A stretch of DNA of 64,000 nucleotides from an uncultured Acidobacteriota bacterium (GTDB lineage: Bacteria > Acidobacteriota > Thermoanaerobaculia > UBA5066 > Gp7-AA6). Of this stretch, positions 30,208 through 53,322 are shown in pieces. Position 1 is the stretch's first letter. Every line of letters starts with the position of its first letter. A program made the position numbers and the translations under genes. Under the pieces are notes generated by a model that was given only the letters and a program-made list of their open reading frames with translations, did no database searches and was not told the origin of the DNA. The stretch covers positions 158,477 through 222,476 of the forward strand of contig CAWHTA010000005.1 in NCBI GenBank assembly GCA_963832145.1. Direction: 5' to 3'.

Positions 30208-31893
30208 CGATCTGGCGCGGGCGATTCGATCGAGCCCCGCCAGGCGCAGGACCGTGCGGACGACCCCCTCCGCGTCGTCGAAGGAGTACGTCGGCACGGA
30301 GTCGTTCGCGGGCGAGTCGGATACGCGGGCGAGGGCACCGGGGACGGGCGGCCGGGACGCGCCGGATCGAACGACCTCGATCTTCGGGATCGGCAGGGCC
30401 TTGAAGCCCTCGACCAGGACGAGGTCGAACCCGGAGAACTCGCGCCGGACGATTTCCTCGAGGGGCTCGTCGCCGACTTTCCTCCACACCGCGGCGCGAC
30501 CGGGAGTCACGAGCGACCAGGCGTCGCACCCGGCAGCGCCGAGCCGGTGGGAGTCCTTCCCGACGACGTCGTCGTCCACATTGCGGGACGAGTGCTTGAT
30601 CGCCCCGACGGCGAGCCCGAGCGCGGAGAGAAGGGGAATCAGCTTCTCGATGAGCGTGGTCTTGCCGGAGTCGTGCCCCCCGACGAAGGCGACGAGCGCG
30701 GGCCGGTGGTCCGCGTAGAGGAGGAAGGGGTCGCGGCGGGCCAGAAACTTCCGCGCTTCTTCGCGATGACGGCCGACTTCGCCCGGCAGGTCGCCGCCGG
30801 CGTCCACGAGCTCGCGGAATCGCGCCGAGCCGGTGAGGACGTCGATCGCGGGACGCGTGTCGAACTCGTAGGGCTCGCTCCTCCAGCGGAAGGAGTCCTC
30901 GTCGAGTGACCGCGCCGTAGCGATCACGGCGAGGCCGGTCTCGTACGGCTGAAAGGCCGCCGGATCGGTGACGTGAAGGATCGCTCCCCCGCACGTCTCG
31001 TTTGCGTGCTTCTCGAACATCGGGCGGAACCGGGTCGGAAGGAAGGCCACTCCGGGCATCGCGAGCTTCCCGAGCGCCTCGACGAGCTCGAGCGGGTCGA
31101 GCCACGGCGCGCCGAACGTCTCGAACGGTCTCGCAGTGCCGCGCCCTTCCGAGAGGTTCGTGCCCTCGAGCAGACACATGCCCGGGTAAACGCGCGCGGC
31201 GGCAACGGTCGGGATGTTGGGCGAGGGCGGCACCCAGGGAAGCCCCGTTTCCTCCCACCGCGTGTCCCGACCCCACGCGGCGAGCGGCGAAACCACGAGG
31301 TCGACGTCGATGCCCCGCTCCGACGCGAGCAGGCGCGCGAGCTCACCCGAGGTCAGCCCGTGACGCACGGGAATCGAGTGGAGACCGACGAACGAGAGAA
31401 ACGCCGGATCCTGCGGGGCGCCCTCGACGCCTCCGCCGAGCGGATTGGGCCGGTCGCAGACGACGAGGCGTTTTCCCTGCTCCGCGCAGGCTTCCATGGC
31501 GAGGAGCATCGTCCAGTTGTACGTGTAGTAGCGGCTTCCCACGTCCGGCACGTCGAACACGATCGCATCGACGTCGGCGAGGTCCTCGGCCCTCGGCTTG
31601 AGGCTCTCCCGGGTCGAGCCGTAGAGGGAGACGACGGGCAGGCCGGTCTCGCGATGAATGGAGCCCGCGACGTCTTCCATGTAGATCGCGCCGCCGTCGA
31701 CCCCGTGCTCCGGCCCGAAAAGGCGGGTGAGGCGCACGTCGGGAAGCCGGAACAGGGCCTGCCAGCTCGGAGTCCCATCCGGCGTCAGTCCCGAGGGGTT
31801 CGTGATCAGGCCGACCCGGCGCCCCGCGAGAGGAGAAGGGTCGGCGATGAGGGCTTCGATCCCGAGGATCGTTCTCGAAGGGCGCGTCGTCAA
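30199..31893 (-). CDS. DUF1343 (NamZ/YzbB-like) protein fused in frame to MobB (molybdopterin-guanine dinucleotide biosynthesis adapter)
   Basis: The TTG at 31893 overlaps the mogA stop. DUF1343 body: VGLITNPSGLT...LFGPEHG...VFDVPDVGSRYYTYNWT...CDRPNPLGG...LSEGRGT...FLLY. It is followed directly by RPALVAFVGGHDSGKTTLIEKLI...IKHS...GKDSHR (MobB P-loop), with no stop between. Confidence 0.7.
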   Translation of the reverse strand: MTTRPSRTILGIEALIADPSPLAGRRVGLITNPSGLTPDGTPSWQALFRLPDVRLTRLFGPEHGVDGGAIYMEDVAGSIHRETGLPVVSLYGSTRESLKPRAEDLADVDAIVFDVPDVGSRYYTYNWTMLLAMEACAEQGKRLVVCDRPNPLGGGVEGAPQDPAFLSFVGLHSIPVRHGLTSGELARLLASERGIDVDLVVSPLAAWGRDTRWEETGLPWVPPSPNIPTVAAARVYPGMCLLEGTNLSEGRGTARPFETFGAPWLDPLELVEALGKLAMPGVAFLPTRFRPMFEKHANETCGGAILHVTDPAAFQPYETGLAVIATARSLDEDSFRWRSEPYEFDTRPAIDVLTGSARFRELVDAGGDLPGEVGRHREEARKFLARRDPFLLYADHRPALVAFVGGHDSGKTTLIEKLIPLLSALGLAVGAIKHSSRNVDDDVVGKDSHRLGAAGCDAWSLVTPGRAAVWRKVGDEPLEEIVRREFSGFDLVLVEGFKALPIPKIEVVRSGASRPPVPGALARVSDSPANDSVPTYSFDDAEGVVRTVLRLAGLDRIARARSDS

Positions 31894-32417
31894 ACGACGT
31901 CGTCCCCGGACTCCGCGCGGGGATGGTCCGCCTTCTCGCCGCGCACGAGCTCGACCGCGTGGGGCAGCAGATCGGCGACCGCCCGGAGACAGTCGGCGGC
32001 GCCCGTCGGAGAGCCGGGAAGCGCGAGGACGAGCGCGTGCCCGCGCACTCCCGCCACCTGCCGGGAGAGGTACGCCGCGGGGAAGTCCCGCCCCGTCTCC
32101 ACCCTCATTTTTTCCGCGAGCCCCGGCGCCTCGAAGTCGATCACCTGCCGCACCGCCTCCGGAGTCCGGTCGCGGGGAGAAAGGCCGGTTCCACCTGTCA
32201 GGACGACGATGTCGACCTCTCCCGAGTCGGCTCGAATGCGAACGATCCGGGCGATCTGCTTGGGTTCGTCCGCGACGGTCTCGCGCGAAACCACTTCGTG
32301 CGGGACCCCGGAGTCGGCGAGCGCCTTCTCGCAAGCGGGCCGGCCGAGGTCCGTCCGGTTCCCCGACGCGACTCCGTCGGACACGGTAACGATCGCAACC
32401 CGGATTGGACCCGTCAT
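31890..32417 (-). CDS. mogA: Molybdenum cofactor biosynthesis protein MogA/MoaB
   Basis: 175-aa ORF. VAIVTVSDG...VVLTGGTGLSPRDRTPEA...LPGSP. Confidence 0.85.
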   Translation of the reverse strand: MTGPIRVAIVTVSDGVASGNRTDLGRPACEKALADSGVPHEVVSRETVADEPKQIARIVRIRADSGEVDIVVLTGGTGLSPRDRTPEAVRQVIDFEAPGLAEKMRVETGRDFPAAYLSRQVAGVRGHALVLALPGSPTGAADCLRAVADLLPHAVELVRGEKADHPRAESGDDVV

Positions 32418-34337: not shown

Positions 34338-34912
34338 CCGCGCTCCCGGTGGGCCAGGTAGTCGTTGAAGGTGTTGACGTTCGTGAACGACGCGCCGCTC
34401 GGGTCGATCTTTAGCCACTCGGACTCGGGCAGCGTCTCCGCGCCGATTTCGTCGGCGAGACCGGAAAGGGAGAGCTGTTCCTTGGCAATCCGGTTCCGCG
34501 CGAACCGCGCCGCCGCCCGCCGCCAGACCGCCGCGAGGGGTTGGAGGCGGCCGCCCGCTTCCGGGATGACGGCGAGCGCGCTCGTCGCCTCGGCGCGCCG
34601 CACGAGCTCGCGCACGACGTCGTGGGTGACGGAGGGGAGATCGACGGCGAGGACGAAGATTCGGTCGTCGGCCTCCTCGATCGCGCGCGCGAGGCCATGG
34701 ATGGCGGCGAAATCGGGAGTGTCTTCGAGGACGATCCGCGCCGGACCGATCGGAAAGTCCGGAGTCTCCTTGACGACGACGAAGACCTCGCGAAAGAGGC
34801 TCGCGAGCCGCCCGGTCTGGAACTCCAGCAGGTTACCTGCTCCCCACGGGAGCGCCGCCTTGGACCGGCCCATGCGCTGCGAGGCGCCGCCGGCGAGCAC
34901 GGCCGCCGGCAT
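34334..34912 (-). CDS. mobA: Molybdenum cofactor guanylyltransferase
   Basis: MPAAVLAGGASQRMGRSKA... An alternative in-frame GTG start lies at 34924. Confidence 0.8.
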   Translation of the reverse strand: MPAAVLAGGASQRMGRSKAALPWGAGNLLEFQTGRLASLFREVFVVVKETPDFPIGPARIVLEDTPDFAAIHGLARAIEEADDRIFVLAVDLPSVTHDVVRELVRRAEATSALAVIPEAGGRLQPLAAVWRRAAARFARNRIAKEQLSLSGLADEIGAETLPESEWLKIDPSGASFTNVNTFNDYLAHRERG

Positions 34913-34957
34913 GGGAAGCTTCACTGCGGGGATGCTAGCAGGGTTGATGACGTTCGC

Positions 34958-35626
34958 ATGATCTCGGTGATCGTCCCCATCAAGGACGAACCTCCCGGCG
35001 TCGTGGAGCGGTTGGCCCGGTTCGCCGGAAGGGCGGACAAATCCGAGCTCGTCGTCGCCGACGGCGGCGGGGACGAGCGAACCCGCAAGGCCTTCCGCGA
35101 GGCCGGGGCCCGCGTTCTCCTCCTCCCCGGCACGCGGGGAGCGCGGCTGGCGCAGGCCGCAGCGAGCGCGCGGGGAGACGCCCTCTTCTTCCTCCACGCG
35201 GACTCGCAGCCACCGGACGACGCGCTCGCGCTCATTTCCCGTTCGCTCGAAGACGGCGCCGACGCCGGAGCGTTCTCGCTCGCCTACGAAGGCGCGGACC
35301 GGCGGATGCGATGGATCGCCTGGTGGGCGAACCGCCGGTCGCGCCTCGGGATGCCCTTCGGCGATCAGGGAATCTTCTGCCGCCGATCGACCTACGAGCG
35401 CACGGGCGGTTTTCGGGACCTGCCGATCTGCGACGACCTCGACCTGGTGAGGCGGCTCCGGAAAGCCGGCGCCTTCGTCGTACGGCCCGAGAAGACCGTG
35501 ACTTCACCGCGGCGGTACCGGGAGGCCGGGGCGCTTCGGCAGGTGCTCCGCACGTGGCGCGTTCTGGCCGGCTACTACGCCGGCGTCCGGCCCGAAACCC
35601 TCAGCCGCTGGTACGAGGGGCGCTGA
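34958..35626 (+). CDS. Family 2 glycosyltransferase (small, TIGR04283-like)
   Basis: ATG at 34958. ISVIVPIKDE...LVVADGGGDE...FLHADS...FGDQGIF...DLDLVRRL. Confidence 0.75.
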   Translation: MISVIVPIKDEPPGVVERLARFAGRADKSELVVADGGGDERTRKAFREAGARVLLLPGTRGARLAQAAASARGDALFFLHADSQPPDDALALISRSLEDGADAGAFSLAYEGADRRMRWIAWWANRRSRLGMPFGDQGIFCRRSTYERTGGFRDLPICDDLDLVRRLRKAGAFVVRPEKTVTSPRRYREAGALRQVLRTWRVLAGYYAGVRPETLSRWYEGR

Positions 35627-38639: not shown

Positions 38640-38800
38640 CCGACAATTAGCGTCCGGGCCGCTAACTTTTGTCCATCGGGCGTGAATTTCGCGCCGGAGA
38701 TCGGCTGACCACTCCGCAGCCGCGGGTCGCAACACACGGCAGCGTATGAAAGAGGGCGCGGTTCGAGCCGTGGTACGCCGCGTGAAGTAGTCATCCTCGA
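38640..38800 (-). promoter_or_regulatory. Candidate FMN (RFN) riboswitch-like leader of ribBA
   Basis: ~250-nt ORF-free leader. The minus strand reads ...cgacccgcggctgcggagtGGTCAGCcGATCtCCGGcgcgAAATTCacgCCCGAtGGacAAAAGTtagcggCCCGGAcG. This resembles the 3' half of the RFN consensus (AGCCCGCGAGC..GGTCAGCAGATCCGGTG.AATTCCGGAGCCGACGGT.AAAGTCCGGATG). I could not recognise the 5' half. Confidence 0.3.
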
Positions 38801-39043
38801 CGGACGACCAGAATCCGCACGTCACATCGCGGTGGCTGTCATCAGGCGCCCGTGACGGTCGAGAGCGGAAGGTCCGATGAGGACAGCTTCGAATCCGACT
38901 CAGAACGGGAATTCGCTAGGAGTCTCTCACTCGATGCACAGACTTTTGACGCCGACGGCAGACGATCCGCTCTTCGCACCCGCCAATCGCGGCGGCCGGA
39001 GGGAATCGACGTCTGTAGGCGTTGCAACAGAACCGGAGCCGAA

Positions 39044-42000
39044 ATGAAGTCAGGCGAAACACGGGGCCCTACACCGGGAGCTGGAACGGAATCGAGTCGT
39101 AAGGGAGCGGTTCGCGAACTGCTCGCAAGGGCGCGTCTCGCGGCCACGCTGGTGATGGGCCTTTGCCTCCTTTCGGTCGGTATCCCATCGGCGCCGGCGA
39201 GCGCCGAAGAGCGCGTCGCCCCGCAGCTCGTTCGGCGAGGCGACGCGAAGATCGCCGCCGTCCTTTCGATCTATCCCTCGATCTTCCCCCTCAGCTCCAC
39301 GAGTGCGGCGCTCGTCTGCGTGACGAACGTCAATGCGAATTCGACCGCTCGGCTCGAGCCGAATGACGTGTTCGTCGCGACGCTGGATGAGCTGGCGCTC
39401 GAAACCTTTTCGATGCTCTCTCCGATCCTGCTGGTTGATTCGGAAACACTGGAATCTTCCGAGTTCGTCGCCGCGGTTGACACCGTGAATCGGCGCCTCG
39501 TGATCACCTACGTCGGAGCGCCCGACGCTTTCGAGGCCGGGGACAGCATCTGCGCTGCTCTCTCGCTGAGCACGTCGAGCGTGCTGGGATCCCGGACGAT
39601 CCGCTTCGATATCCCTCCTTTTGAGTCTCGGTTCTCGGGTGGCAAGGATCCGTCTTTCCTCACGTTCGCGGTTGCTGTGATCGGGCCGACCATTCCGATG
39701 GGCCCGGCCGGTCCGACCGGCGCCGCGGGTGCTGATGGAACCAACGGCGTTGATGGCGCGACCGGTGCGACCGGGACGCAGGCGCGGACGGCGCACCGGC
39801 GACGGCGCTACCGGCGCTCAGGGTACGGCGGGCGTCGACGGATCAGACGGTGCTGGCGGCGCCACGGGCGCGGCCGGCGCCGATGGAACCAACGGAACGA
39901 ACGGAACCGACGGCGCGACGGGCGGCACGGGCGCAGCTGGTGCTGACGGCACCAACGGAACGAACGGTACCGACGGCGCGATGGGCGCTACCGGCGCCGC
40001 GGGCGCGGACGGAACCGACGGAACTAACGGAACAAACGGAACAAACGGCACCGACGGCGCGACCGGCGACACCGGTGCCACGGGGTCGGCCGGTACTGAT
40101 GGGACCAACGGAACAAACGGCACCGACGGCGCTACAGGTGCCGATGGAACTGATGGCCCGACCGGTGACACGGGTCCTCAGGGCGTAGCCGGTGCCGATG
40201 GAACAGTCGGCGCGACTGGCCCCACGGGCGCAGCGGGTGCCGACGGAATCAACGGAACGAACGGCACCGACGGCGTGACGGGCGACACCGGTGCCACGGG
40301 TGCGGTTGGCGCCGATGGGACCAACGGTATCGACGGAACCAACGGAACAAACGGGACCGACGGCGCGCCTGGCGCTGCGGGTGCTGATGGAACCAACGGT
40401 GCTGACGGCGCGACGGGCGCCACGGGCGCTGCGGGTGTTGATGGAACCAACGGTGCAGACGGTGCTGACGGCGCTGTTGGCCCCATGGGTCCGGCTGGCC
40501 CGGCTGGAGCCGACGGCGCAGCGGGTGCCGCGGGTGTAGACGGTGCGGCCGGTGTCGATGGTGCAGCGGGAGCCGCAGGCATCGATGGCGCGGCCGGTGT
40601 CGATGGGGCCCCAGGTGTCGATGGTGCAGCGGGTATCGCGGGCACTGACGGAACCAACGGAGCCGATGGCGCGACGGGTGATACGGGCGCAGCCGGAACC
40701 AACGGTATTGACGGAACCAACGGAACAAACGGCACCGACGGCGCCACGGGCGCAGCCGGCGCTGATGGAACCAACGGCATACGGAACAAACGGCGCCGAC
40801 GGAGCGACGGGCGACACGGGCCCGACTGGTGCCGATGGAGCAGTAGGTCCAACGGGTTCGACTGGCCCCGCTGGTGCCGATGGAGCGATTGGCGACACCG
40901 GTGCCCAAGGCGCAACCGGTGCCGACGGAATCAACGGAACAAACGGGACCGACGGTGCGACAGGCGACACGGGTGCTACCGGTGCGGCTGGTATCGATGG
41001 TGCAGCGGGTATCGCGGGCGCTGACGGAACCAACGGAGCCGATGGCGCGACGGGTGCTGCGGGTGCCGATGGCGCCGCGGGCGCCGATGGAACCAACGGT
41101 ACGGATGGCGCGACCGGTGCTACGGGCGCAGCCGGCGCTGATGGAACCAACGGTATCGACGGAACCAACGGAACAAACGGGACCGATGGCGCGACCGGCG
41201 ACACAGGCCCGACTGGTGCCGATGGAGCGGTGGGTCCAATAGGTCCGACTGGCACCGCTGGTGCCGATGGCGCGACGGGCGACACCGGTGCCCAGGGCGT
41301 AACCGGTGCCGATGGAATCAACGGAACAAACGGGACCGACGGCGCGACTGGCGACACGGGTGCCACGGGCGCGGCCGGTACTGATGGAACCAACGGAACC
41401 AACGGAACCAGGACGGTATCGACGGCCCGACGGGCGCTGCGGGTACCGATGGCGCCACCGGCGCAGCGGGCGCTGATGGAACGAACGGCACCGACGGCGC
41501 TACGGGCGCCGCTGGTACTGATGGAACCAACGGTATTGACGGCGCGACCGGCGCCACGGGCGCCGCGGGCGCGGACGGAACCAACGGAACGAACGGCACC
41601 GACGGCGCGACTGGCGACACGGGTGCCACGGGCGCGGCCGGTACTGATGGAACCAACGGAACGAACGGCATCGACGGCGCGACGGCGCCACGGGCGCAGC
41701 TGGCGCTGATGGAACCAACGGTATTGACGGAACAAACGGGACCGACGGCGCGACCGGCGATACAGGTGCCACGGGCGCTGCGGGTGCTGATGGAACCAAC
41801 GGTACAGACGGTGCTGACGGCGCTGTTGGCCCAATGGGTCCGGCTGGCCCGGCTGGAGCCGACGGCGCAGCGGGTGCCGCCGGTGTAGACGGTGCGGCGG
41901 GTATTGATGGTGCGGCCGGTGTCGATGGAGCCCCTGGTGTCGATGGTGCAGCGGGTATCGCGGGCGCTGACGGAACCAACGGAGCCGATGGCGCGACGGG

Positions 42001-44622
42001 TGCTACGGGCGCGGCCGGAACCAACGGTACTGACGGAACCAACGGAACAGACGGGCCGACGGCGCGACGGGCGACACCGGTGCCACGGGCGCAGCTGGTG
42101 CTGATGGAACCAACGGTATCGACGGAACAAACGGGACCGATGGCGCGCCTGGCGCTGCGGGTGCTGATGGAACCAACGGTGCAGACGGTGCTGACGGCGC
42201 TGTTGGCCCCATGGGTCCGGCTGGCCCGGCTGGAGCCGACGGCGCAGCGGGTGCCGCGGGTGTAGACGGTGCGGCCGGTGTCGATGGTGCAGCGGGTATG
42301 CCCGGGCGCCGACGGAACCAACGGAACGAACGGCGCCGACGGCGATACGGGTGCCACGGGCGCAGCCGGTGCTGACGGAACCAACGGAACGAACGGTGCC
42401 GACGGCGCGACGGGTGCTACGGGCGCCGCCGGTGACTGACGGAACCAACGGTATAGATGGAACGAACGGATGCAGACGGCACCGACGGCGCGACGGGCGA
42501 CACGGGTGCCACGGGCGCAGCCGGTGCTGATGGTATCGACGGAACAAACGGGACCGACGGCGCCGACTGGCGCTGCGGGTGCTGACGGAGCCGACGGTGC
42601 TGACGGTGCTGACGGCGCTGTTGGTCCGATGGGTCCGGTTGGCCCGGCTGGTGCCGACGGCGCAGCGGGTGCCGCGGGTGTAGACGGTGCGGCCGGTGTC
42701 GATGGTGCAGCGGGTATCGCGGGCGCCGACGGAACCAACGGAGCCGATGGCGCGACGGGCGCTGCGGGTGCCGATGGCGCCGGTGCAGCGGGCGCCGACG
42801 GAACCAACGGAACGAACGGTACGGACGGCGCGACGGGTGCTACGGGCGCCGCCGGTACTGATGGAACCAACGGTATAGATGGAACGAACGGATCAAACGG
42901 CACCGACGGCGCGACGGGCGACACCGGTGCCACGGGCGCAGTTGGCGCTGATGGAACCAACGGTATCGACGGAACCAACGGAACAAACGGGACCGACGGC
43001 GCAGCCGGTGCCACGGGGGCGGCCGGTACTGATGGAACCAACGGTATTGACGGAACCAGCGGAACAAACGGGACCGACGGCGCAGCCGGTGCCACGGGGG
43101 CAGCCGGCGCTGATGGAACTAACGGCATTGACGGAACCAACGGTGCAGACGGTGCTGACGGCGCTGTTGGCCCCATGGGTCCGGCTGGCCCGACGGGCTC
43201 CGACGGCGCAGCGGGTGCCGCGGGTGTAGATGGCGCGGCCGGTGTCGATGGAGCACCAGGTGTCGATGGTGCAGCGGGTATCGCGGGCGCTGACGGAACC
43301 AACGGAGCCGATGGCGCGACGGGCGCTGCGGGTGCTGATGGAACCAACGGTGCGACGGTGCTGACGGCGCTGTTGGCGCCATAGGTCCGGTTGGCCCGGC
43401 TGGAGCCGACGGCGCAGCGGGTGCCACGGGTGCAGACGGTGCGGCCGGTGTCGATGGTGCTGCGGGAGCCGCAGGCATCGATGGCGTGGCCGGTGTCGAT
43501 GGAGCCGCTGGTGTCGATGGTGCAGCGGGTATCGCGGGCACTGACGGAACCAACGGAGCCGATGGCGCGGCGGGTGCCGATGGCGCCACCGGCGCAGCGG
43601 GCGCCGACGGAACCAACGGTACGAACGGCGCGGACGGCGCGACGGGCGACACGGGCGCTGCGGGTGCTGACGGAACCAACGGTGCAGACGGTGCTGACGG
43701 CGCCGTTGGCCCAATGGGTCCGGCTGGCCCGGCTGGAGCCGACGGCGCAGCGGGTGCCGCGGGTGTAGACGGTGCGGCCGGTGTCGATGGTGCAGCGGGA
43801 GCCGCAGGCATCGATGGCGCGGCCGGTGTCGACGGAGCCCCAGGTGTGGATGGTGCAGCGGGTATCGCGGGCGCTGACGGAACCAACGGAGCCGATGGCG
43901 CGACAGGTGCTGCGGGCGCGGATGGAACCAACGGAACAAACGGTCTCGACGGCGCGACGGGCGCCACCGGTGCCGCGGGCGCGGCCGGTGCTGACGGAAC
44001 CAACGGAACAAACGGCGCCGACGGAGCGACGGGCGACACGGGTCCGGCTGGGGCCGATGGAGCGGTCGGTCCGACGGGTCCGTCCGGTCCGGCTGGCGCT
44101 GACGGCGCTGCTGGCGCTGCGGGCGTCGATGGTGCTGCCGGCGTCGCCGGTGCGGCAGGTATCGATGGTGCCGCAGGTGTCGCCGGCGCGGCCGGTGCGG
44201 CGGGTGTCGCGGGTGCGGCCGGTGTCGACGGTGCCGCGGGTGTCGCGGGCGCGGCTGGTGCCGCAGGTGTCGCCGGCGCGGCCGGTGCGGCGGGTGTCGA
44301 CGGTGCAGCCGGTGCCGCGGGGGCCACTGGTCCGGCGGGTCCGACTGGCCCGAGCGGCTCGACGCTCGTCACCGGAACGCCGGCGGCCTCGGGGATCGCA
44401 CCGCTCCTGGGAACTCAGGTCACGACTTCGGCAACCTGCGCGGCTGGAAAAGTCCTCCTGGGTGGCGGGGCGAGGGTTGTTTCGTCGACTGGCAGTGACG
44501 CGGCGCTCGTCTCGTCCTATCCAAGTAGCACGACGACATGGACCGCGGTCGGCGAGACCACCGGGTTGCTCGGCTTGTTTCAGACGTTCACGGTCACGGC
44601 CTACGCGCTGTGCAGCCAGTAG
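39044..44622 (+). CDS. Giant secreted collagen-like (Gly-X-Y)n protein, ~1,860 codons; 11 frame breaks in this assembly
   Basis: GGAG lies 5 nt upstream of ATG 39044. Signal peptide ...[25 protein letters not shown], then a unique ~190-aa N-terminal domain. G-X-Y periodicity runs from 39701 to 44364 and is read from ORFs 38852.., 39729.., 40543.., 41834.., 42470.., 43486.. plus my own frame tracking. A unique 85-aa C-terminal domain ([12 protein letters not shown]...[10 protein letters not shown]) follows, then TAG 44620-44622. Confidence 0.8.
39701..44364 (+). repeat. Coding 9-nt periodic repeat (~518 GXY triplets) organised in ~10 mosaic super-repeats
   Basis: The GADGAVGP[M/T/I]G marker recurs near 40465, 40831, 41218, 41815, 42190, 42610, 43155, 43360, 43695 and 44045. 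~200-nt blocks such as 40481-40690 and 43710-43920 are about 95% identical. Confidence 0.85.
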
Positions 44623-44660
44623 GTCGGTAAGCGATTCAACGGGTCAGACAGTCCTGAACG

Positions 44661-44695
44661 CGCGCGGCCGACTTCGGGTCGGCCGGCGCGATTTT
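44661..44695 (+). terminator. Putative rho-independent terminator of the collagen-like gene
   Basis: cgcgcggccgac-ttcgg-gtcggccggcgcg forms a 12-bp GC stem with one bulge, followed by ATTTT. Confidence 0.5.
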
Positions 44696-44826
44696 CAGAG
44701 TTTGGGGAAGATTCTAGGAAGAGGTCGAAGTCGAAAGCATGGTCGCGCCGTACGATCCGCCCTGGAGTACGCGGTACGGCCCAGCGACCGCTCAAAGGGC
44801 TCCGGCGGACTCCGACCGGGTGGGGT

Positions 44827-46518
44827 TTAAAAAACCGCCGGCTCTTCGTAAGTCGCAAACACCTCGCGCATCACGTCGGAGATCTCGCCGACCGTCGCAT
44901 AGGTCTTGACGGCCTCGACAAGGGGCGGCATGACGTTACGGCCGTCCGCGCACGCTTGGCGCAGAACGGCGAGCGCGGACACGACCGCCTTCCCATCCCT
45001 CGAGCGCCGAAGCTCGGCGAGGTCCAACTTCTGCTGGTCCTCCACGGACTCGTCGATGTAAAGCGTGTCGAGCGGCGCCTCGTTCTCCTCGATGAATTCG
45101 TTGACCCCGACGACGATCTTTTCCTTCGCGTCCACGGCACGCTGGTAGGCGTAGGCCGCGTCCATGATCTCGCGCTGGGGGAAGCCCGCCTCGATCGCTT
45201 CGACCATTCCGCCCAGGGCGTCGATGCGCCGGAAGTAGTCGAAGCAGCCGCGCTCCATCTTCGTCGTCAGGTCCTCGACGAAGTACGAGCCTCCGAGCGG
45301 GTCGATCGTGTTCACGACCCCCGACTCGTGGGCGATCACCTGCTGGGTCCTCAGCGCGAGCTTCACGGCGAAGTCCGAAGGAAGGGCGAGCGTCTCGTCG
45401 AGAGAGTTGGTGTGAAGCGAGTTCGTCCCGCCGAGTACGCCCGCGAGCGCCTGGAGCGCCGTCCGAACGACGTTGTTGTACGGCTGCTGCGCCGTCAGGG
45501 AACATCCCGCCGTCTGCGTGTGGAAGCGGCACATCCAGGATCGCTCGTCCTTCGCACCGAACCGCTCCTTCATCGTCTTCGCCCACACGCGGCGTGCGGC
45601 GCGGTATTTCGCGATCTCTTCGAAGAAGTCGTTGTGCGCGTTGAAGAAGAAAGACAGCCTCGGAGCGAAGTCGTCGACGGCCATCCCCGCTTCGATTCCG
45701 TACTTCACGTACTCGACGCCGTCGCGCAGGGTGAAGGCGAGCTCCTGCAGCGCCGTCGAGCCGGCCTCGCGGATGTGGTAACCGGAGATCGAGATCGTGT
45801 TCCACTTCGGAACGTTCTTCGCGCAGAACGAGAACTGGTCGGTGATGAGCCGCATCGAGGGGCGCGGCGGGAAGATGTACTCCTTCTGGGCGATGTACTC
45901 CTTCAGGATGTCGTTCTGAAGGGTTCCCCCGACCTTCTCCCAGGGGGTGCCGTGCTTCTCGGCGACGGCGAGGTACATGGCGAGCGCGATCGGCGCCGTC
46001 GAGTTGATCGTCATCGACGTCGTCACGCGGCCGAGGTCGATCCCGTCGAAGAGCACTTCCATGTCGGCGAGCGAGTCGATCGCGACGCCGCACTTTCCGA
46101 CCTCGCCGCGCGCCATCTCGTGGTCGGAGTCGTAGCCATAGAGCGTCGGCAGGTGGAACGCCGTCGAAAGTCCCGTCTGACCGTGATCGAGGAGGTAGTG
46201 GAAGCGCTCGTTCGTCTGGCGGGCCGTCCCGTAGCCGGCGAACTGCCGCATCGTCCAGAGCTTTCCCCGGTACATCGTGGGCTGGACCCCGCGGGTGAAG
46301 GGGTATTTCCCCGGCCATCCGAGGTCTCGCTCCGGGTCGAAACCCGCGAGCGTGTCGGGTCCCGCGAGGGGAAGAACCTCCGCGCCGGAGACGGTCGTGA
46401 AGTCGCGTTTCCAGTGGGGATGACGCTCGAAACTTTTTTTTGCGGCCTCATCCCAGCGGCGCCGGCCTTCGCGGATTTCCGGGGGGACCGTCGGGTCGAG
46501 CTCTTCGTTCTTTCCCAT
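44827..46518 (-). CDS. Acyl-CoA (methylmalonyl-CoA-type) mutase large catalytic subunit, without a B12 domain
   Basis: ATG at 46518. [63 protein letters not shown]. It ends before any B12-binding domain. Confidence 0.9.
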
Positions 46519-46660
46519 CAGCTCATTCTGCTCTTTCCGAGGACACAATAGCCCAATCCCCTCAGTCATTTCCATTCGAACGTCCGGAGGTCCGTGGAAG
46601 GCATGAAAGATGCAACGTTCCTCTCGCGGCCATTTGGCCGAAAGCACAAGGAGGAACTTC

Positions 46661-47299
46661 ATGACGAAACGGATTACTTCTCTACTGGGGATTCTCGCGT
46701 TGGTGGCGTTCGCGGTGGCGTGCGCTCAGACCGATGCGGGGATCACGACCAAGGTCAAGACCAAGCTCGCGGCGGATGACACCGTCAAGGCGTATCAGAT
46801 CGACGTCGACACCAAGGACAAGGTCGTAACACTCTCCGGAAGCGTCGACAATCAGGCAGCCAAGGATCAGGCTGTCGCCCTCGCTCGCGGCACCGAAGGC
46901 GTCGCGGACGTAGTCGACAACATCACGGTTTCGGGCGGCGCGGCCGCAATGCCGGGTGATGCTCCGGCGTACGGCAGCGAAGGCGCGACCGGCGCACCCG
47001 CGCCCGGTGGCGAAGGCGACGCGGCGATGGGCGGCAACGCCCCGAACCCGGAGCCGGATCGACCGGCCGGAACGGTCATGGATGACGCCGCGATCACGGC
47101 GGCCGTCAAGGCCAAGCTTCTGGCGGACCCGACGGTTGGCGGTCTGAAGATCGACGTCGACACGCGCAATGGCGTCGTGTGGCTCACGGGTGATCACATG
47201 AACAGCCAGGCCGAGATCGACGCGGCGATCAAGATCGCCAAGGCGACCGAGGGCGTCAAGAGCGTCGAGAACAAGATGGTGGTTGGCGACAAGCACTGA
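46661..47299 (+). CDS. Two-BON-domain lipoprotein (OsmY-like)
   Basis: AAGGAGG lies upstream of ATG 46661. Lipobox AVAC. Two BON units (...[35 protein letters not shown] and ...[36 protein letters not shown]). Confidence 0.85.
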
Positions 47300-47344
47300 G
47301 GATTTGAAGAACGTCCGCCGGTGAAAACTGGCGGGTTTCTTAGA

Positions 47345-47373
47345 GGGCCAGGGAAACCTGGCCCTTGTTTTTT
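47345..47373 (+). terminator. Rho-independent terminator
   Basis: gggccagg-gaaa-cctggccc forms an 8-bp stem with a GNRA loop, followed by ttgtttttt. A weaker hairpin (ccgcc..ggcgg) lies just upstream at 47316-47335. Confidence 0.8.
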
Positions 47374-47383
47374 GGAAGACGGA

Positions 47384-48460
47384 CTACTTCCCCAAGACCG
47401 GAAGCAGCGCAGTCTTGGCCATTTTCGCAAGACCCTTGGCGGAGAACGGAAGACTCGACGACATGAAGCACGAGTGTGTGCACCAGCACTCGCGCTTCGC
47501 GATGCGGTGGCGCATCGCGTCGGCCTTCTCCGAGAACCACGCTTTCGCGAAGGACCAGCCGAAGTCGCGGATGTTCCCGATCTCCCACTGCACCTCGCAG
47601 AGCGAGACCGTTCCCTCGGGGTTCAACACCCCCGAGACGGTCCCGGCGTAACAGGGGTAGACCATCCGCTCCTGGGAGAGCGTCTCGAGCTCCGCTTCCC
47701 GAGCGGCGACCTTCAGGTTCTTGAGGATCGGCCGGTACCGGTCGAACCCCGCCCAGTAGGGCTTGAGCGTCGAAAGCGCTGTCGCGTACTCCGCCGCCGT
47801 CAGCGGCCGGATGGACGAGTCGGGAAACGGCGGGCGGAGAAGCTCGAAAGAGTGGAAGTTGATCTCCGGGAAGTTCGCGGCAACCCAGCCCGTGATTTCC
47901 GGCAGGTCGTCCCGGTTGAATGACGCGAGGACGGTCTGCACGTTCACGAGCAGGCCCGAGCTCCGCCGCTTGAGCGCCGCGAGGCGCCGGTACGTTTCTT
48001 CGACGCGGGGAAAGTTCCCCGGCGCGCCGCGGATCCGGTCGTGGCGTTCCCCGAGGTGGTCGAGCGAGAGTCCCACGGTGAACGTCTGGCGCTCGTCGCG
48101 GCGGGACTCGAGGACGTGCGCTACGGTCGACTCGACCTGCTCGGGAAGGAGCGAATTCGTCGGCATCGTGACGTTCGACGTTTCGTGCCGGCGGTAGAGA
48201 AGGCGCGTGATGTCCGGCAGGTCGCGATTGAGCGTCGGCTCCCCTCCCGTCAGCACGACGCTGTAAAGAGAGGGCAGGTCCGCGAGCGCGCGGTCGTAGT
48301 CGGCGAGCGACATCTCGAGGTGCCGATTGACGTTCAGGTGATCCCAGTAGAAGCACGTGACGCACTTCGAGTTGCAGAGGTTGGTCATCCCGAGGATCAG
48401 GTACCGCGGGAGCGTCCTGCGGCCGCGCACCCACTGCGAAGCGAGAGCGAGCTCTTTCAC
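47384..48460 (-). CDS. Radical SAM protein with SPASM/twitch-like C-terminal Cys cluster
   Basis: The GTG at 48460 overlaps the upstream stop (GTGA). LILGMTNLCNSKCVTCFYW (CxxxCxxC), VLTGGEPTL, and C-terminal CYAG...LCEV...CWCTHSC. Confidence 0.75.
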   Translation of the reverse strand: MKELALASQWVRGRRTLPRYLILGMTNLCNSKCVTCFYWDHLNVNRHLEMSLADYDRALADLPSLYSVVLTGGEPTLNRDLPDITRLLYRRHETSNVTMPTNSLLPEQVESTVAHVLESRRDERQTFTVGLSLDHLGERHDRIRGAPGNFPRVEETYRRLAALKRRSSGLLVNVQTVLASFNRDDLPEITGWVAANFPEINFHSFELLRPPFPDSSIRPLTAAEYATALSTLKPYWAGFDRYRPILKNLKVAAREAELETLSQERMVYPCYAGTVSGVLNPEGTVSLCEVQWEIGNIRDFGWSFAKAWFSEKADAMRHRIAKRECWCTHSCFMSSSLPFSAKGLAKMAKTALLPVLGK

Positions 48461-49446
48461 CGTGCTCCCGCGGTCAGGAGGCCCTGCGCGATGCCGGCGA
48501 GAAGGCCACCGAAATAGGTCAGGTGGTGGAGGGCGAACGCAAACGGCACCGCGGGGAAAAGGACCGGATCGTCGCGCCAGATCGGGAAGGACAGCGCCCA
48601 GGTCGTAGCGGCGTAGAGGAGGCCGACGGGAAGGAGGAACGGAAGCCCGAAGAGCGCCGTTCCGGCGGTGGCCGCGAAACCGGCCGTGAGAAACGCGGTG
48701 ACCCGCCCTCTCGAATGGAGCCCCGGACGCTCGACCAGCAGCCGGCCGGTCTTCACGCGATAGCGCCAGCGCTGCGCGAGATACCCGCCCGGAAACGGGC
48801 GCCGGCGGTGGCGCACCCGGACGTTCGGATCCAGGTGGACCGCAAAGCCGCGGTCGAGAGCGCGGCGCACGAAGTCCGTGTCCTCCCCGACATATCCGAG
48901 GCTCTCGTCGAACCCGCCGAGTCCCTCGAAGGCCATCCTCGTCGCGAAGAGGTTGCAGAGCGCGACGTCGTGCGGCGAAGCGACGGGACCGCCCCGGGGA
49001 CGACGCTCGTGGGCCGGAATGCCGCTTCCGATCCAGGGGGTGGCGAGCAGCAGGTCGGACAGCCGCTCGCCGTACGACGCTCCCCGGAGACCGAGGTCCG
49101 GTCCGCCGGCCACGTCCGCGCGTTCGAGCGAACGCGCACCGGACTGCAGCCAATCCGGCTCGGCTTCGGCATCGTCATCGATGAACGCGAATACGGTCCC
49201 GCGTCCCCGAAGGGCCGCGGCATTCCGCCGGGCCGCGGGGTTGCGCGGCACGACAGTGACCCACTCGCAGGGAAAGGAGAATGTCCGCGGTGCGCGCGGC
49301 GGGGCCGCCGACGCGATCACAACCTCGAAGGGCGGGGCACCCTCCTGCCGCTCGAGGGACTCGAGGCAAGCGGAAAGAGAGCCCTCCACCCGATCCGAAG
49401 CGATGAGCACCGAGATCAGTGGGGCGGGAGCCATGGACTCGTCCAT
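48457..49446 (-). CDS. Family 2 glycosyltransferase with C-terminal multi-TM region
   Basis: ATG at 49446. ISVLIASDR...FEVVI...FIDDDAEAEPDWL...GEDTDF. C-terminal TM helices (FLTAGFAATAGTALFGLPFLLPVGLLY...). Confidence 0.75.
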   Translation of the reverse strand: MDESMAPAPLISVLIASDRVEGSLSACLESLERQEGAPPFEVVIASAAPPRAPRTFSFPCEWVTVVPRNPAARRNAAALRGRGTVFAFIDDDAEAEPDWLQSGARSLERADVAGGPDLGLRGASYGERLSDLLLATPWIGSGIPAHERRPRGGPVASPHDVALCNLFATRMAFEGLGGFDESLGYVGEDTDFVRRALDRGFAVHLDPNVRVRHRRRPFPGGYLAQRWRYRVKTGRLLVERPGLHSRGRVTAFLTAGFAATAGTALFGLPFLLPVGLLYAATTWALSFPIWRDDPVLFPAVPFAFALHHLTYFGGLLAGIAQGLLTAGAR

Positions 49447-49479
49447 CTTAGTCTCCAACCGTGGCGAATCCGAGCGGGA

Positions 49480-49503
49480 GGGGTCAGGATAAATCCTGAC
49501 CCC
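49480..49503. repeat. Family B-related perfect hairpin (GGGGTCAGGAT aa ATCCTGACCCC)
   Basis: 11-nt perfect arms in the divergent intergenic region between the GT2 gene and E1-alpha. Confidence 0.65.
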
Positions 49504-49519
49504 GCTAAGATCTGTACCG

Positions 49520-50527
49520 ATGGCGGACCTCACCCTCGAACAACGAATCGACCTCTATCGGTTCATGCGGTGGAACCGGTCCCTCGAAGAGCGGCTCGTT
49601 CTCCTGTATCGGCAGGGAAAAATCGTCGGAGGACTGTACCGTTCGCTCGGTCAGGAGGCGACTTCGGTCGGAAGCGCTTCCGCGCTCGAAAAGGGCGACG
49701 TCCTCGGCCCCCTCATCCGCAACCTGGGCTCCGTGCTCGTCATGGGGTACACCGCGCGCGAAGTTCTCACACAGCACCTCGCGCGTGCTTCCTCGCCGTC
49801 GGGCGGCCGGGAGGGCAATCTGCACTTCGGCCGGCCGGAGCGCGGCGTCGTCTCCTCCATCTCGATGCTCGGCGCCCTCGTCCCGGTGATGGCGGGCATC
49901 GCGCTCGCGGCCCGGATGCAGCGCCGACGCACCGTCGCGATGACGTACATCGGCGACGGGGCAACGTCGACCGGCGCGTTCCACGAGGGGCTCAACTTCG
50001 CCGCGGTCCAGAAGCTGCCGCTCGTCGTGATCGCGGAGAACAACGGCTGGGCGTACTCGACCCCCTTTCGAAAGCAGACCGCGGCGAAGTGCCTCGCGGA
50101 CCGGGCGGCGGCGTACGGCATCCCCGGCGTGACGGTGGACGGGAACGACGTCGTCGCGGTTTTCGCAGCCGCGCGGGCCGCTGTCGATCGCGCGAGGGCC
50201 GGCGAGGGACCGACGCTCGTGGAGGCCCGGACGTATCGCATGAAGGGGCACGCCGAGCACGACGGCCAGAGCTACGTGCCGAGAGAAGAGCTGGAGGAGT
50301 GGAAGCGGCGCGATCCGATCGAGCGATACGCCGAGCGCCTCATCGCCGCGGGGGACGCGACGGCGGCTTCTCTCGACGCGATCGATCGGAAGATCTCGGA
50401 GGAGCTCGAGCGGGACGTCGCCTACGCCGAGACGTGCCCCGCTCCCTCGCCCGAGCACGCCTTCGACGGCGTCTACGCGTCGGACGAAGGCGCGGAGGAG
50501 CCGGCCTTCCTGAGGAGGCTCGTTTGA
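49520..50527 (+). CDS. 2-oxoacid (pyruvate/branched-chain) dehydrogenase E1 alpha subunit
   Basis: 335-aa ORF. YIGDGATSTGAFHEGLNFAA...VIAENNGWAYSTP...RTYRMKGHAEHD (TPP-binding). Confidence 0.9.
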   Translation: MADLTLEQRIDLYRFMRWNRSLEERLVLLYRQGKIVGGLYRSLGQEATSVGSASALEKGDVLGPLIRNLGSVLVMGYTAREVLTQHLARASSPSGGREGNLHFGRPERGVVSSISMLGALVPVMAGIALAARMQRRRTVAMTYIGDGATSTGAFHEGLNFAAVQKLPLVVIAENNGWAYSTPFRKQTAAKCLADRAAAYGIPGVTVDGNDVVAVFAAARAAVDRARAGEGPTLVEARTYRMKGHAEHDGQSYVPREELEEWKRRDPIERYAERLIAAGDATAASLDAIDRKISEELERDVAYAETCPAPSPEHAFDGVYASDEGAEEPAFLRRLV

Positions 50528-51546
50528 GCGTGACCGCCTCCGGCCCGCCCGCGGACCCGATTGCGCCTCCCCGCGGGGGGACCTTCTACGTCGATGCGAT
50601 CCGCGAGGCGCTTTCCGAGGAGATGGCGCGTGACGACCGCGTGTTCCTCCTCGGCGAGGACATCGGGGTCTACGGCGGCGCTTTCAAGGTCACGGACGGA
50701 CTCATCGAGCGGTTCGGGGAGGAACGCGTCCTCGACACGCCGATCTCCGAGACCGCGATCGTGGGGGCCGCGGTGGGCGCGGCGATGGCCGGCCTGCGTC
50801 CCGTGGCGGAGATGCAGTTTGCCGACTTCATCTCCTGCGCCTTCGACATGATCACGAACTTCGCCGCGAAGTCGCGCTACCGCACCGGCTGCGCGGTTCC
50901 CCTCGTCGTCCGGGGGCCGGCGGGCGGCGGGATCCATGGCGGCCCGTTCCACTCGCAGAACCCCGAGGCCTACTTCGCGCACACGCCGGGTTTGAAGATC
51001 GTGCAGCCGGCGACCGCTCACGACGCCAAGGGGCTCCTGAAAGCCGCGATCCGCGACGACGACCCCGTTCTCTACTTCGAGCACAAGTACCTCTACCGGC
51101 GCGTGAAGGAAGTTCTGCCCGAGGAGGACTACGTCGTGCCGATCGGACGGGCGGCAGTGCGGCGCGAGGGGCGCGACGTCTCCGTTCTGACATACGGCGC
51201 CATGGTGTGGACGGCGCTCGAAGCCGCCCGCACGCTCGAGACCGAGGGGATCGACGCCGAGGTCATCGACCTGCGAACTCTCTTTCCTCTGGACGAGGAA
51301 ACGATCCTCACTTCGGTGGCGAGGACGAGCCGCGCCGTGGTGCTGCACGAGGCGACGCGGACCGGCGGAATCGGCGCGGAGGTCGCCGCCGTCATCGCGG
51401 AGCGCTGCTTCGAGTGCCTGGACGCGCCGGTCGTTCGCGTCACCGCGCCGGACACTCCCGTCCCGTTCGCGCCCGCCCTCGAGGAGGCGTTCCTTCCGAA
51501 CGCCGAAAAACTCTGTCGCGCGGTGCGCGTTCTCGTCGGTTACTGA
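50524..51546 (+). CDS. 2-oxoacid dehydrogenase E1 beta subunit
   Basis: TTG 50524 (overlapping the E1-alpha stop) or GTG 50530. VFLLGEDIGVYGGAFKVTDGL...DTPISE...FADFI...GPFHSQNPEA. Confidence 0.9.
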   Translation: MSVTASGPPADPIAPPRGGTFYVDAIREALSEEMARDDRVFLLGEDIGVYGGAFKVTDGLIERFGEERVLDTPISETAIVGAAVGAAMAGLRPVAEMQFADFISCAFDMITNFAAKSRYRTGCAVPLVVRGPAGGGIHGGPFHSQNPEAYFAHTPGLKIVQPATAHDAKGLLKAAIRDDDPVLYFEHKYLYRRVKEVLPEEDYVVPIGRAAVRREGRDVSVLTYGAMVWTALEAARTLETEGIDAEVIDLRTLFPLDEETILTSVARTSRAVVLHEATRTGGIGAEVAAVIAERCFECLDAPVVRVTAPDTPVPFAPALEEAFLPNAEKLCRAVRVLVGY

Positions 51547-51549
51547 GCG

Positions 51550-51633
51550 GGGGTCAGGTCTCCACCTGACACTTTCCGCCAAAGAAACTTGTCGCCTCTC
51601 ATCGGCAAAAGTGGTTAGTGGAGACCTGACCCC
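51550..51633. repeat. Family B element, full copy: 16-nt perfect terminal inverted repeats
   Basis: ggggtcaggtctccac (51550-51565) and gtggagacctgacccc (51618-51633). The left 43 nt closely match 25777-25819. Confidence 0.8.
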
Positions 51634-53322
51634 AGCCGAATGACGGCGCGGCGAAGTCTCTCGTGCGCCTGCGAGAGGCGGAGATAGGCGATCTCCTCCG
51701 CTCCGCTCTTTGCTTTCACGACGCGCGCGGCGGCGCGCTTTTCCGCGGCGGGCCAGCGGCCGAGGTCGGGAACGAGGGCGAGAACGAGGGCCATATCGTC
51801 GAAGGTCTCGCGGGCGACAGGGTCGCCGGACCTCTCCGCGCGTCCCGAGGGCCCGCGCCACCCGAGCCTTCGAGTCGCGTCGAGCGCGTTCCGGGTCGCC
51901 GCCCGAACGGGTGCGCATCCTCCGCTGAACCGCCAGCCCGATGCGGCGGACGTGGAACCGGTCCCACTCCCCCGATCGCGCCGGATCGGTCTCGTAGAGC
52001 AGGTTGCCTTTCACGAGACGGCGAAGGACCTCGGGCGTGGAGCGATGCCGGGGATCTGCGGCGATCGCCCGCTCTTCTCGGGCGAGCAGACGTGCGACCT
52101 TCGGATCGGTGGGTCGGAATCCGAGCTTGCGGTAGAACCAGAAAGCGCCGGACTCGATGCCCTCCTCGTTCTCGAAGCCGATCTGGTACGGATCGATCGA
52201 GAACGATGTGACGCCGAGGACCTGCCGGAGCAGGTGCAGGAACTTCGAGAAGATCCACGCCGACTCCCCTTCGCGAAACGTGTAGTACATGTTGAAACCG
52301 ACCTCGATCCGATCGAAGAAGGCGAGCCCCTCGAAGTAGCCGATGGGCACGCCGTTCTTCAAGACGAACGCGGCGTATCCGGCGCGCAGCGGCAGGCGGC
52401 GACCCCTTTCGAGGCCGACCAGAAAGATCTCGACGCCACGCCCCACTTTCGCGGCCCGGACGGACGCGGGGTTGCCGTACGTGAAGTTGTAGTACTCGCG
52501 ATAGCGAAGCGCCGTCGACTCCCGCGCGAGCTCGAGAAACGCGGCGCCCTGAGCGCGCGCCAGCCGGCGGACGGCGAGAGGCGGTGAGGCGAGCTCGCTC
52601 GCGAGGGACACCTCGCGCCGCGTGAGGAGTGGGCCGGGGTGGAAGAAGGCCTCCGCGGGAGTGAATCGGCCGCGGAGGCGCGTCCGCGTCACCCGCCCGT
52701 AACCGACGTCCCAGACGATCGGGATCTGGAGAGCCTCGAAGCGCTCGGCGCGCTCGTCCCGGTCTTCGCGAAGGCGCTCGAGCGCGGCGAGGAGCCACGG
52801 CAGATCCCGGTTCGGGTTCGGCTCGGCCGCGCGCAGCCACTCGAGGTAGGGGACGTTCGCGTCCTCGAGCGCCTCCTCCTCGAGAAGCGGCAGGAAGCGC
52901 GGGAAGAGGGCGCGCAGCCGGTCGGAGCCCTCGTATCCCTCCCAGTCGAGCCGGACCCGCCCGGGAAATCGGCGGGCCAGCCACCGGACGACGTCGTAGG
53001 AGTAGGTCGTCGTGACCTTCGAGCCCGCGATTCCCGACAGCTCGGGATCGTCGAACGCGGAGAGGTCTACTCCCTTTCCGGCCAGGCGGGCAACCTGTTT
53101 CGGAAAGGCAGTCAGCAGGCGCTCCGTCGCCGCCAGAACGCGTCGGTCGTGCGGGTAGGCGCGGAGAAAGAGGAGGGCTTCGTGGAGTCGGACGAGCTCA
53201 TGCGCCTTGGAAGCGGCCAGGCCGCCGATCGAACGCAGGAGCCGCGCCGTCTCGCCGCCGTCGGGCCGGCGCGTTTTCAGATCTTCGAGCTTCGAAAGGA
53301 GTGCGCCGAACGAACGGCTCAA
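51615..53322 (-). CDS. Hypothetical ~569-aa protein with a GNAT-like C-terminal half; one frameshift near 51845
   Basis: The TTG at 53322 overlaps the thrC stop. The body is in ORF 50473..54186 (LSRSFGALLSKLEDL...GAFWFYRKLGFRP...). After ...RVARALGTR my translation of another frame gives AERSGDPVARETFDDMALVLALVPDLGRWPAAEKRAAARVVKAKSGAEEIAYLRLSQAHERLRRAVIRLGSGLH*, which looks protein-like. Stop TAA at 51615-51617. Confidence 0.55.

Follow-up and report, generated by a model that had tools for sequence, protein, structure and literature searches.

A very long, frame-interrupted collagen-like gene of an uncultured acidobacterium likely encodes a secreted fiber

INTRODUCTION

BclA, of the exosporium of Bacillus anthracis and Bacillus cereus, forms a hair-like nap whose length tracks the number of its Gly-X-Y triplets. 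Its Thr-rich Gly-X-Y stalk, which lacks hydroxyproline, runs from an N-terminal region for attachment to a compact, beta-rich C-terminal domain at the distal tip, and this nap-and-stalk architecture has been reviewed previously (PMC8968730). Scl1 and Scl2 of Streptococcus pyogenes and Lcl of Legionella are likewise surface Gly-X-Y trimers that lack hydroxyproline and carry a noncollagenous trimerization or binding domain. Here, we analyze a locus that resembles these systems in its layout: positions 39044 to 44622 of a 64,000-nucleotide (nt) stretch of contig CAWHTA010000005.1 (here called the window) from an uncultured Acidobacteriota bacterium. We consider it likely that one gene fills this interval, that it encodes a very long, secreted collagen-like fiber of a Thermoanaerobaculia-related bacterium, and that it is intact in the organism.

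BclA contains tens of triplets, mostly GPT, whereas the tract described here has about 511 and is Pro-poor and rich in Asp and Asn. The C-terminal domain of BclA is a C1q/TNF-like jelly roll (BclA_C, PF18573); its counterpart here (the C-domain) has no Pfam match, and no BclA, C1q, or TNF structure was among the top 50 Protein Data Bank (PDB) fold matches listed for it. The hosts also differ, one being a Firmicute spore former and the other a nonsporulating diderm. O-glycosylation of Thr is thought to stabilize the BclA helix, which may find a parallel in the 212 Thr residues of the present tract. In Scl, an N-terminal V domain trimerizes, a C-terminal LPXTG motif serves as the anchor, and many residues, including Lys, are charged; the protein studied here ends in ...AYALCSQ, lacks LPXTG, and has no basic residues in its tract apart from the frameshift edges considered below. 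NCBIfam models of Scl and Lcl (including NF038330 and NF038329) matched neither end domain. Phage and pyocin tail fibers with collagen-like segments provide a further parallel, since they are trimeric with a beta-rich distal tip and since relatives of the N-terminal domain described here (the N-domain) contain a Peptidase_S74 domain. The present gene is set apart from them by its chromosomal housekeeping context and signal peptide, and no structural match to them was significant.

The Scl and BclA tracts are far shorter than the one described here. An earlier note, made from the sequence alone, had placed this tract beyond known bacterial collagen-like proteins in length, which holds against Scl, BclA, and the family maximum of 180 triplets but not against the literature, where bacterial collagen polypeptides reach 6,000 amino acids (aa) (PMC11923368). 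Bacterial collagens overall have approximately 19% Pro at X and 32% Thr at Y (PMC8968730), and Thr-Gly-Ala and Thr-Gly-Pro triplets are overrepresented in bacteria (PMC11923368). The composition that the same note had singled out as unusual is not unique: many members of the C-domain family have Thr/Ala-rich tracts with 0% Lys and Arg, and an unrelated 557-aa protein (P0210) has a GTN/GxD tract free of Pro, Lys, and Arg. What is distinctive is a tract about three times as long as that of the longest resolved relative, together with a lineage-specific combination of very low Pro and high Asp and Asn, common to the window and the related contig L001 (Pro, 2 to 5%; Asp, 17 to 18%; Asn, 8 to 11%; the lowest Pro relative to the C-domain family). 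The gene is thus not new in kind but lies at the extreme of a family that has received little study.

RESULTS

The elements outlined in the earlier note, namely, a signal peptide, an N-domain, a Gly-X-Y tract, an 85-aa C-domain, a stop codon, and a hairpin, were all found where it had placed them on the plus strand. In the sequence, a GGAG resembling a ribosome binding site (39035 to 39038) precedes an ATG start codon (39044 to 39046), at which the public gene call P0001 also begins, and both elements are kept in the related fragments L084 and L085 (alignment A6). The first 54 residues of the translation (39044 to 39205) read as a signal peptide-like segment with a basic n-region, a hydrophobic core, and a cleavage-like site between ASA and EE; the hydrophobic core and a PASAEER motif are kept in P0002, P0003, and P0083. 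The N-domain of approximately 159 aa (39206 to 39682), a member of an uncharacterized N-terminal module family that occurs in secreted collagen-like or fiber proteins, is followed by the tract of 511 triplets (39701 to 44364), which lies in 12 segments across the three plus-strand frames, and by the C-domain (44365 to 44619) with its stop codon (44620 to 44622). Downstream lies a GC-rich hairpin (approximately 44660 to 44695; perfect core arms at 44665 to 44672 and 44678 to 44685) followed by TTTT, plausibly a weak intrinsic terminator. It was below the threshold of the consensus terminator scan, having four T residues only, and was not listed there.

The plus strand encodes the N-domain, tract, and C-domain in colinear order, and Gly codons are intact at 511 of 511 positions between frame junctions, with no stop codon in the Gly-X-Y frame of any segment. 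The single open reading frame (ORF) of about 1,860 codons described in the earlier note is, however, not present in the assembly, a state at which that note hinted while still presenting the locus as one gene. The longest plus-strand ORF at the locus is 431 aa, and the Gly-X-Y reading passes through 10 frame changes and one in-frame 3-nt register slip over approximately 4.7 kb. One continuous ORF, by which membership in the Collagen family might be judged, is therefore lacking as assembled, and the uninterrupted Gly at every third residue that had been claimed appears only after approximately 11 to 13 conceptual indel corrections. Frame repair would give a protein of approximately 1,840 aa with a tract of approximately 1,540 aa. 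Public annotation captures little of this: P0001 is a truncated 300-aa product with a junk tail, and the C-terminal part of the gene was absent among the called proteins returned by the C-domain search. An arrangement of several tandem collagen genes was rejected, as neither an internal start nor a further signal peptide or end domain lies within the tract. Minus-strand ORFs within the tract were also rejected as genes: they mirror the GGN periodicity, lack homologous end domains, and are themselves frame broken. These antisense ORFs (372 to 663 aa; 39843 to 44372, minus strand) are Pro/Ala/Val-rich and could mislead gene callers.

Close relatives keep the gene between the same neighbors. The closest C-domain locus (L005) belongs to a metagenome-assembled genome (MAG) of Thermoanaerobaculia (Acidobacteriota) and shares 99.9% identity with the JGI contig L001. 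The genes downstream of the C-domain in L001 and L005 (methylmalonyl-CoA mutase, BON, radical SAM, family-2 glycosyltransferase, and PALP) match positions 44830 to 54410 of the window at 75 to 90% aa identity, with the mutase, BON, and radical SAM neighbors at 84 to 90%. On the other side, the N-domain of the JGI fragments L084 and L085 adjoins a ribBA gene that is 89 to 90% identical to that of the window, and a further orthologous fragment, P0083, is assigned to the Acidobacteriota by its NCBI source record. The neighbors of the collagen-like gene in the window are housekeeping genes (ribBA, methylmalonyl-CoA mutase, BON, and SPFH). The ribBA and collagen-like genes diverge, and the DNA between them includes a noncoding block (approximately 38650 to 38850) that L084 and L085 retain. 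An FMN riboswitch would be a plausible element ahead of ribBA; in the intergenic region between ribBA and the collagen-like gene, no Rfam match reached an E value of ≤0.01. The end domains are only 64 to 71% identical to those of relatives, compared to approximately 90% for flanking genes, a divergence that fits a fast-evolving exposed protein.

The Pfam Collagen hidden Markov model (PF01391) proposed as a check matched two clean in-frame stretches of the tract (E = 2.5e-52 and 2.9e-50; 174.9 and 168.3 bits) well above the gathering cutoff of 27.2 bits. With a clean 326-aa stretch as the query, a homology search returned only collagen-like proteins of 300 to 570 aa. Residue counts bore out the description of the tract as acidic, Pro-poor, and free of Lys, Glu, His, and aromatic residues. 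The X position is occupied mainly by Ala (262), Thr (115), Pro (40), Val (36), Ile (30), and Asp (18) and the Y position by Asp (164), Ala (127), Thr (97), and Asn (78). Lys, Glu, His, Phe, Tyr, Trp, and Cys are absent altogether, and the four Arg residues each lie at a frameshift edge. Pro makes up 4.6% of X/Y positions; there are no Lys-Asp/Glu pairs, and approximately 182 Asp residues give each chain a net charge of about −182. Thr/Asn/Asp-rich blocks alternate with Ala/Val-rich blocks along the tract.

This composition raises the question of whether the tract forms a collagen triple helix at all. The chain could be disordered and extended as a polyanion, or could adopt another polyproline II or Gly-rich assembly, an alternative that draws on the scarcity of Pro, the high net charge, and the lack of Lys, Glu, and (frameshift edges aside) Arg, given that reviews credit the stability of bacterial collagens to Pro, charge pairs, polar hydration, or Thr glycosylation (PMC8968730, PMC11923368). 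We nevertheless regard this alternative as unlikely. Strict Gly at every third residue over approximately 1,540 residues, seen in relatives too, is a signature of selection for a triple helix, and the compact domain attached at the C-terminal end of the tract is conserved, an arrangement shared with proven trimeric bacterial collagens. The tract is also rich in Thr, and bacterial collagens typically contain Thr-Gly-Ala triplets (PMC11923368). Moreover, the chaperone of endosialidase domain (Peptidase_S74) that occurs among N-domain relatives is known from trimeric phage fibers.

Glycosylation had been raised as a possible property of the fiber on the strength of dozens of N-G-T tripeptides. 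These were indeed found (45 N-G-T; 46 N-x-S/T sites), but none of the 46 sites is a D/E-x-N-x-S/T sequon, on which ground PglB-type N-glycosylation was rejected, and no glycosyltransferase gene is directly adjacent to the collagen-like gene. Glycosylation thus remains a guess, as does metal binding by the fiber. Two family-2 glycosyltransferase genes lie within 4 to 5 kb of the gene (34541 to 35626, plus strand; 48457 to 49533, minus strand), the second of which adjoins a radical SAM/SPASM gene at 47384 to 48460.

A separate question is whether the number of triplets is correct. The array could have been expanded, collapsed, or made strain-chimeric in the metagenome assembly, which would make the figure of 511 triplets unreliable. 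The tract is highly self-similar, with super-repeats at periods of 206 to 333 nt, a longest exact internal repeat of 132 nt, and 21% of its 31-mers nonunique; in addition, the consensus is demonstrably noisy, and all short-read assemblies of relatives break within the tract, with contigs ending inside the gene from both sides. However, no 141-mer is repeated within the tract, so multi-kilobase reads should each find a unique anchor and cover much of its length. Both ends match the syntenic ends in relatives, and the order of internal modules is irregular, unlike a simple stutter. An array of the wrong size is improbable in our judgment, to about the same degree as a nonhelical tract.

To characterize the frame changes, each junction was aligned to its best in-frame sister repeat within the tract; all positions that follow are on the plus strand. 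The first break (39782 to 39803; frame 2 to 0) is complex, with at least two small deletions and a short GAD-GAP remnant in frame 1. The second (40780 to 40786; frame 0 to 1), where GGCATAC meets GGAACA, is 2 nt short of a triplet unit relative to sister copies, and the third (41410 to 41416; frame 1 to 0) has 2 nt in excess (ACCAGGACGG). A single nucleotide is lost at the fourth break (41682 to 41686; frame 0 to 2), within a G run (GACGGGCG becoming GACGGCG), and at the fifth (42059 to 42063; frame 2 to 1). Four gains of 1 nt follow: at 42305 to 42312 (break 6; frame 1 to 2; GGTATGCCCGGG versus GGTATCGCGGG), at 42431 to 42436 (break 7; frame 2 to 0; an extra G, GGTGACTGAC versus GGTACTGAT), at 42471 to 42478 (break 8; frame 0 to 1; an extra G, GGATGCAGAC versus GGATCAAAC), and at 42565 to 42570 (break 9; frame 1 to 2). 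At break 7, the remainder of the 129-nt junction alignment is nearly identical to the in-frame sister copy. The register slip is an in-frame 3-nt deletion at 42784 to 42791, and the tenth break (43355 to 43359; frame 2 to 1) is again a loss of 1 nt (GGTGC-GACGG versus GGTGCAGACGG). One messy site aside, the junctions are events of +1, −1, or ±2 nt; apart from these changes, the DNA agrees closely with in-frame sister copies. Programmed frameshifting was rejected because the 10 sites are a mixture of +1, −1, and ±2 events that share no motif.

We find it rather probable that these breaks are indel errors of a noisy long-read consensus and not decay, because all Gly codons are kept, in-frame stops are absent, and the tracts of relatives are uninterrupted: the short-read loci L001, L002, and L003 have 84, 96, and 67 uninterrupted triplets, respectively, in frame with the C-domain and running up to the contig end. 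The problem extends across the assembly, as essential, nonrepetitive housekeeping genes (serA and a carboxyltransferase gene) carry the same kind of breaks, which point to poor consensus quality and which we located from Pfam domains split across ORFs. The carboxyltransferase (PF01039; minus strand, 1062 to 2072) occupies four ORFs in three frames, with model positions 89 to 145 in ORF 1548-2108, 145 to 221 in ORF 851-2464, 232 to 297 in ORF 316-1737, and 298 to 429 in ORF 990-1547 (all minus strand). Its frame switches near 1897, 1650, and 1443 imply at least three frameshifts. On the same strand, serA (D-3-phosphoglycerate dehydrogenase) is split at approximately 29060 to 29150, such that ORF 27885-29471 contains the catalytic domain, whereas ORF 27893-29374, in another frame, contains the NAD-binding, intervening, and ACT domains. 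A conserved 567-aa hypothetical gene (minus strand; no Pfam match) switches frame at 51838 to 51803, about 60 codons before its end, and is intact in L001. Elsewhere in the window, NamZ (exo-beta-N-acetylmuramidase) domains and a C-terminal MobB domain share a single 711-aa ORF (30199 to 32334, minus strand), an odd fusion that may reflect two genes run together by a lost stop codon, in view of the indel noise.

Loci encoding the same C-domain family were then compared by sequencing origin. MFD MAGs are Nanopore-only and were assembled by Flye with one round of Medaka (PMC12313526). Among Nanopore-only MFD MAG loci, 3 to 4 of 11 had Gly-X-Y frame switches (7 per 577 triplets), compared to 0 of 24 short-read loci (k141/NODE/JGI; 0 per 1,657 triplets; Fisher P = 7.5e-5). 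The apparent switch at L049 could be spurious, produced where Gly-rich frames overlap, and the conclusion is unchanged without this locus. Collagen-like genes appear to be systematically frame broken across the MFD catalogue. In three of these MAGs (L016, L017, and L037), Gly-X-Y runs in different frames abut just upstream of the C-domain (upstream of position 10001 in each locus).

These comparisons bear directly on whether the locus is a true pseudogene, in which real frameshifts inactivated the gene in this lineage and decay is under way. Ten frame changes and a register slip within 4.7 kb would be in keeping with such a history, as would the divergence of the end domains relative to the flanking genes and the loss of a neighboring gene. 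In L001, the collagen-like and mutase genes are separated by a segment (1099 to 3182) that holds a TPR gene (506 aa) in convergent orientation and an ORF of 106 aa. This 2.08-kb segment, shared with L005, is missing from the corresponding part of the window (44645 to 44830), where 127 bp take its place; a 20-aa remnant of the TPR C terminus (18 of 20 residues identical; 44645 to 44704) overlaps the terminator hairpin. In neutral decay, however, substitutions normally exceed indels several-fold. Ten or more real indels should therefore be accompanied by a dozen or more destroyed Gly codons, and the loss of 0 of 511 Gly codons by substitution, together with the absence of any stop in the Gly-X-Y frame, is hard to explain as decay. 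The similar breakage of serA and the carboxyltransferase gene in the same window, and the restriction of Gly-X-Y frame switches among related loci to Nanopore-only MAGs, also argue against a pseudogene, which we consider quite unlikely, slightly more so than either of the two alternatives above.

A search for homologs placed both end domains in widespread families. For the C-domain, phmmer returned 79 database matches (down to 9e-23), mostly miscalled fragments of 60 to 135 aa that start within Gly-X-Y. Scans of genomes and metagenomes gave 79 and 48 C-domain loci, respectively, nearly all of the genomic ones with Gly-X-Y upstream, from hosts that include Thermoleophilia/Gaiellaceae, Solirubrobacterales, Saccharibacteria, and Limnocylindria, among others. 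Resolved members have 4 to 180 triplets and 280 to 880 aa, compared to about 511 triplets and 1,840 aa here, and in other C-domain proteins, a signal or transmembrane segment and small modules with Cys residues come first and the C-domain last. The window sequence retains every invariant column of alignment A1 (C35, G43 to G45, S61, P63, W69, and C93), which together form the family motif Cys...GGG...S-x-P...W...Cys. An AF2 model of the C-domain (both end domains were modeled as monomers) is all-beta, with six strands and a pLDDT of 92.4. Foldseek searches of PDB and BFVD with this model found nothing at an E value of ≤0.001. The recurring weak matches, nonsignificant and useful as a lead only, were to phage and pyocin tail-fiber tips (R1-pyocin fiber tip 6cxb, TM score of 0.59, E = 0.78; phage tail-pin and fiber models, E = 0.01 to 0.1).

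The N-domain matched 129 representative clusters at an E value of ≤0.001, always near the N terminus and with Gly-X-Y directly after it. The 16 relatives inspected have a signal peptide, the N-domain, Gly-X-Y, and variable distal parts, including the Peptidase_S74 domain mentioned above. Family motifs (P..F, N.N..S, GD.F, VNS..L..DF, Y.G, F..GDS.C, and R[FY]) are represented in the window by their conserved positions and both Cys residues. In alignment A5, the two Cys residues are both present in 11 sequences, both absent in 6, and never split; this covariation suggests a disulfide and hence an extracytoplasmic location. The AF2 model of the N-domain was poor (pLDDT of 44.5). Homologous end domains link the gene to both unnamed families, and one protein, P0085, combines the two as here, with an N-domain, approximately 12 triplets, and a homologous C-domain (hhalign probability, 97.8%). 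Neither end domain matched Pfam, NCBIfam, or PHROGs (for the C-domain, Pfam was tested to an E value of ≤1), and profile searches of PDB sequences with alignments A2 (C-domain) and A5 (N-domain) returned nothing meaningful. A prophage tail-fiber gene is highly improbable: the C-domain model resembles fiber tips weakly and nonsignificantly and Gly-X-Y tracts match many tail-fiber PHROGs, but the neighbors are housekeeping genes in synteny kept by relatives, the signal peptide is of the Sec type, and neither end domain has a PHROG match.

DISCUSSION

If the gene is intact, its product would be exported via Sec, as the signal peptide-like N terminus and the Cys pairs in both end domains, which suggest extracytoplasmic disulfides, indicate. 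By analogy with BclA-type and fiber-type proteins, from which we infer trimerization, the triple helix, surface location, polarity, and function, three chains may associate, and the tract of approximately 1,540 residues would zip into a triple helix approximately 440 nm long (at 0.286 nm per residue). Collagens fold in a C-to-N zipper from a terminal nucleus (PMC11923368), and the beta-rich C-domain would probably be both the registration or nucleation point and the distal tip. The N-domain would lie at the cell-proximal end and attach the fiber. With approximately 182 Asp residues per chain and no Lys or Glu in the tract, such a fiber would stand on the cell surface as a hair or nap that is hydrated and strongly polyanionic and may present its fast-evolving C-domain for adhesion or binding. 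That the intact gene yields a homotrimeric, nearly Pro-free helix of this length, with no basic residues and about 180 Asp per chain, is a proposal we advance only tentatively and with some doubt.

Several points weigh against an intact fiber gene. The long-read origin and low consensus quality of the window assembly are themselves inferred. The density of breaks in the tract, approximately 1 per 0.4 kb, is above that of most of the window, although the carboxyltransferase gene, with at least three in approximately 0.5 kb, is comparable. No full-length intact orthologue of the giant version was found among the 79 genomic and 48 metagenomic C-domain loci or in a metagenome scan with the N-domain alignment, which gave 0 matches. 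The missing TPR segment might be a sign that the locus is decaying. Given the scarcity of Pro and the absence of Lys-Asp/Glu pairs, the stability of a triple helix is questionable without glycosylation or counterions, and passage of a trimerizing chain of approximately 150 kDa through the outer membrane of a diderm is a problem. Finally, the C-domain has no significant structural match, and its role in trimerization or as a tip is proposed by analogy only.

At the level of families, two widespread unannotated domains cap bacterial collagen-like fibers in the soil groups Thermoleophilia, Saccharibacteria, Chloroflexota, and Acidobacteriota. The family is systematically underannotated, as seen in public calls that are mostly fragments of 60 to 135 aa, because indels in Nanopore-only assemblies break frames and short-read contigs break inside the arrays. 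For the organism, the proposed product would be an unusually long polyanionic acidobacterial surface fiber with a structurally undescribed tip domain and a helix approximately 1.5 times as long as that of animal fibrillar collagen. Such a helix would require a stabilizer other than Pro/hydroxyproline or salt bridges, which may be Thr or Asn glycosylation, hydration networks, or bound divalent cations. If intact, the gene would provide a natural test case for the stability of a long triple helix without Pro, hydroxyproline, or Lys-Asp/Glu pairs, a question that matters for collagen folding and for the design of recombinant collagen materials.

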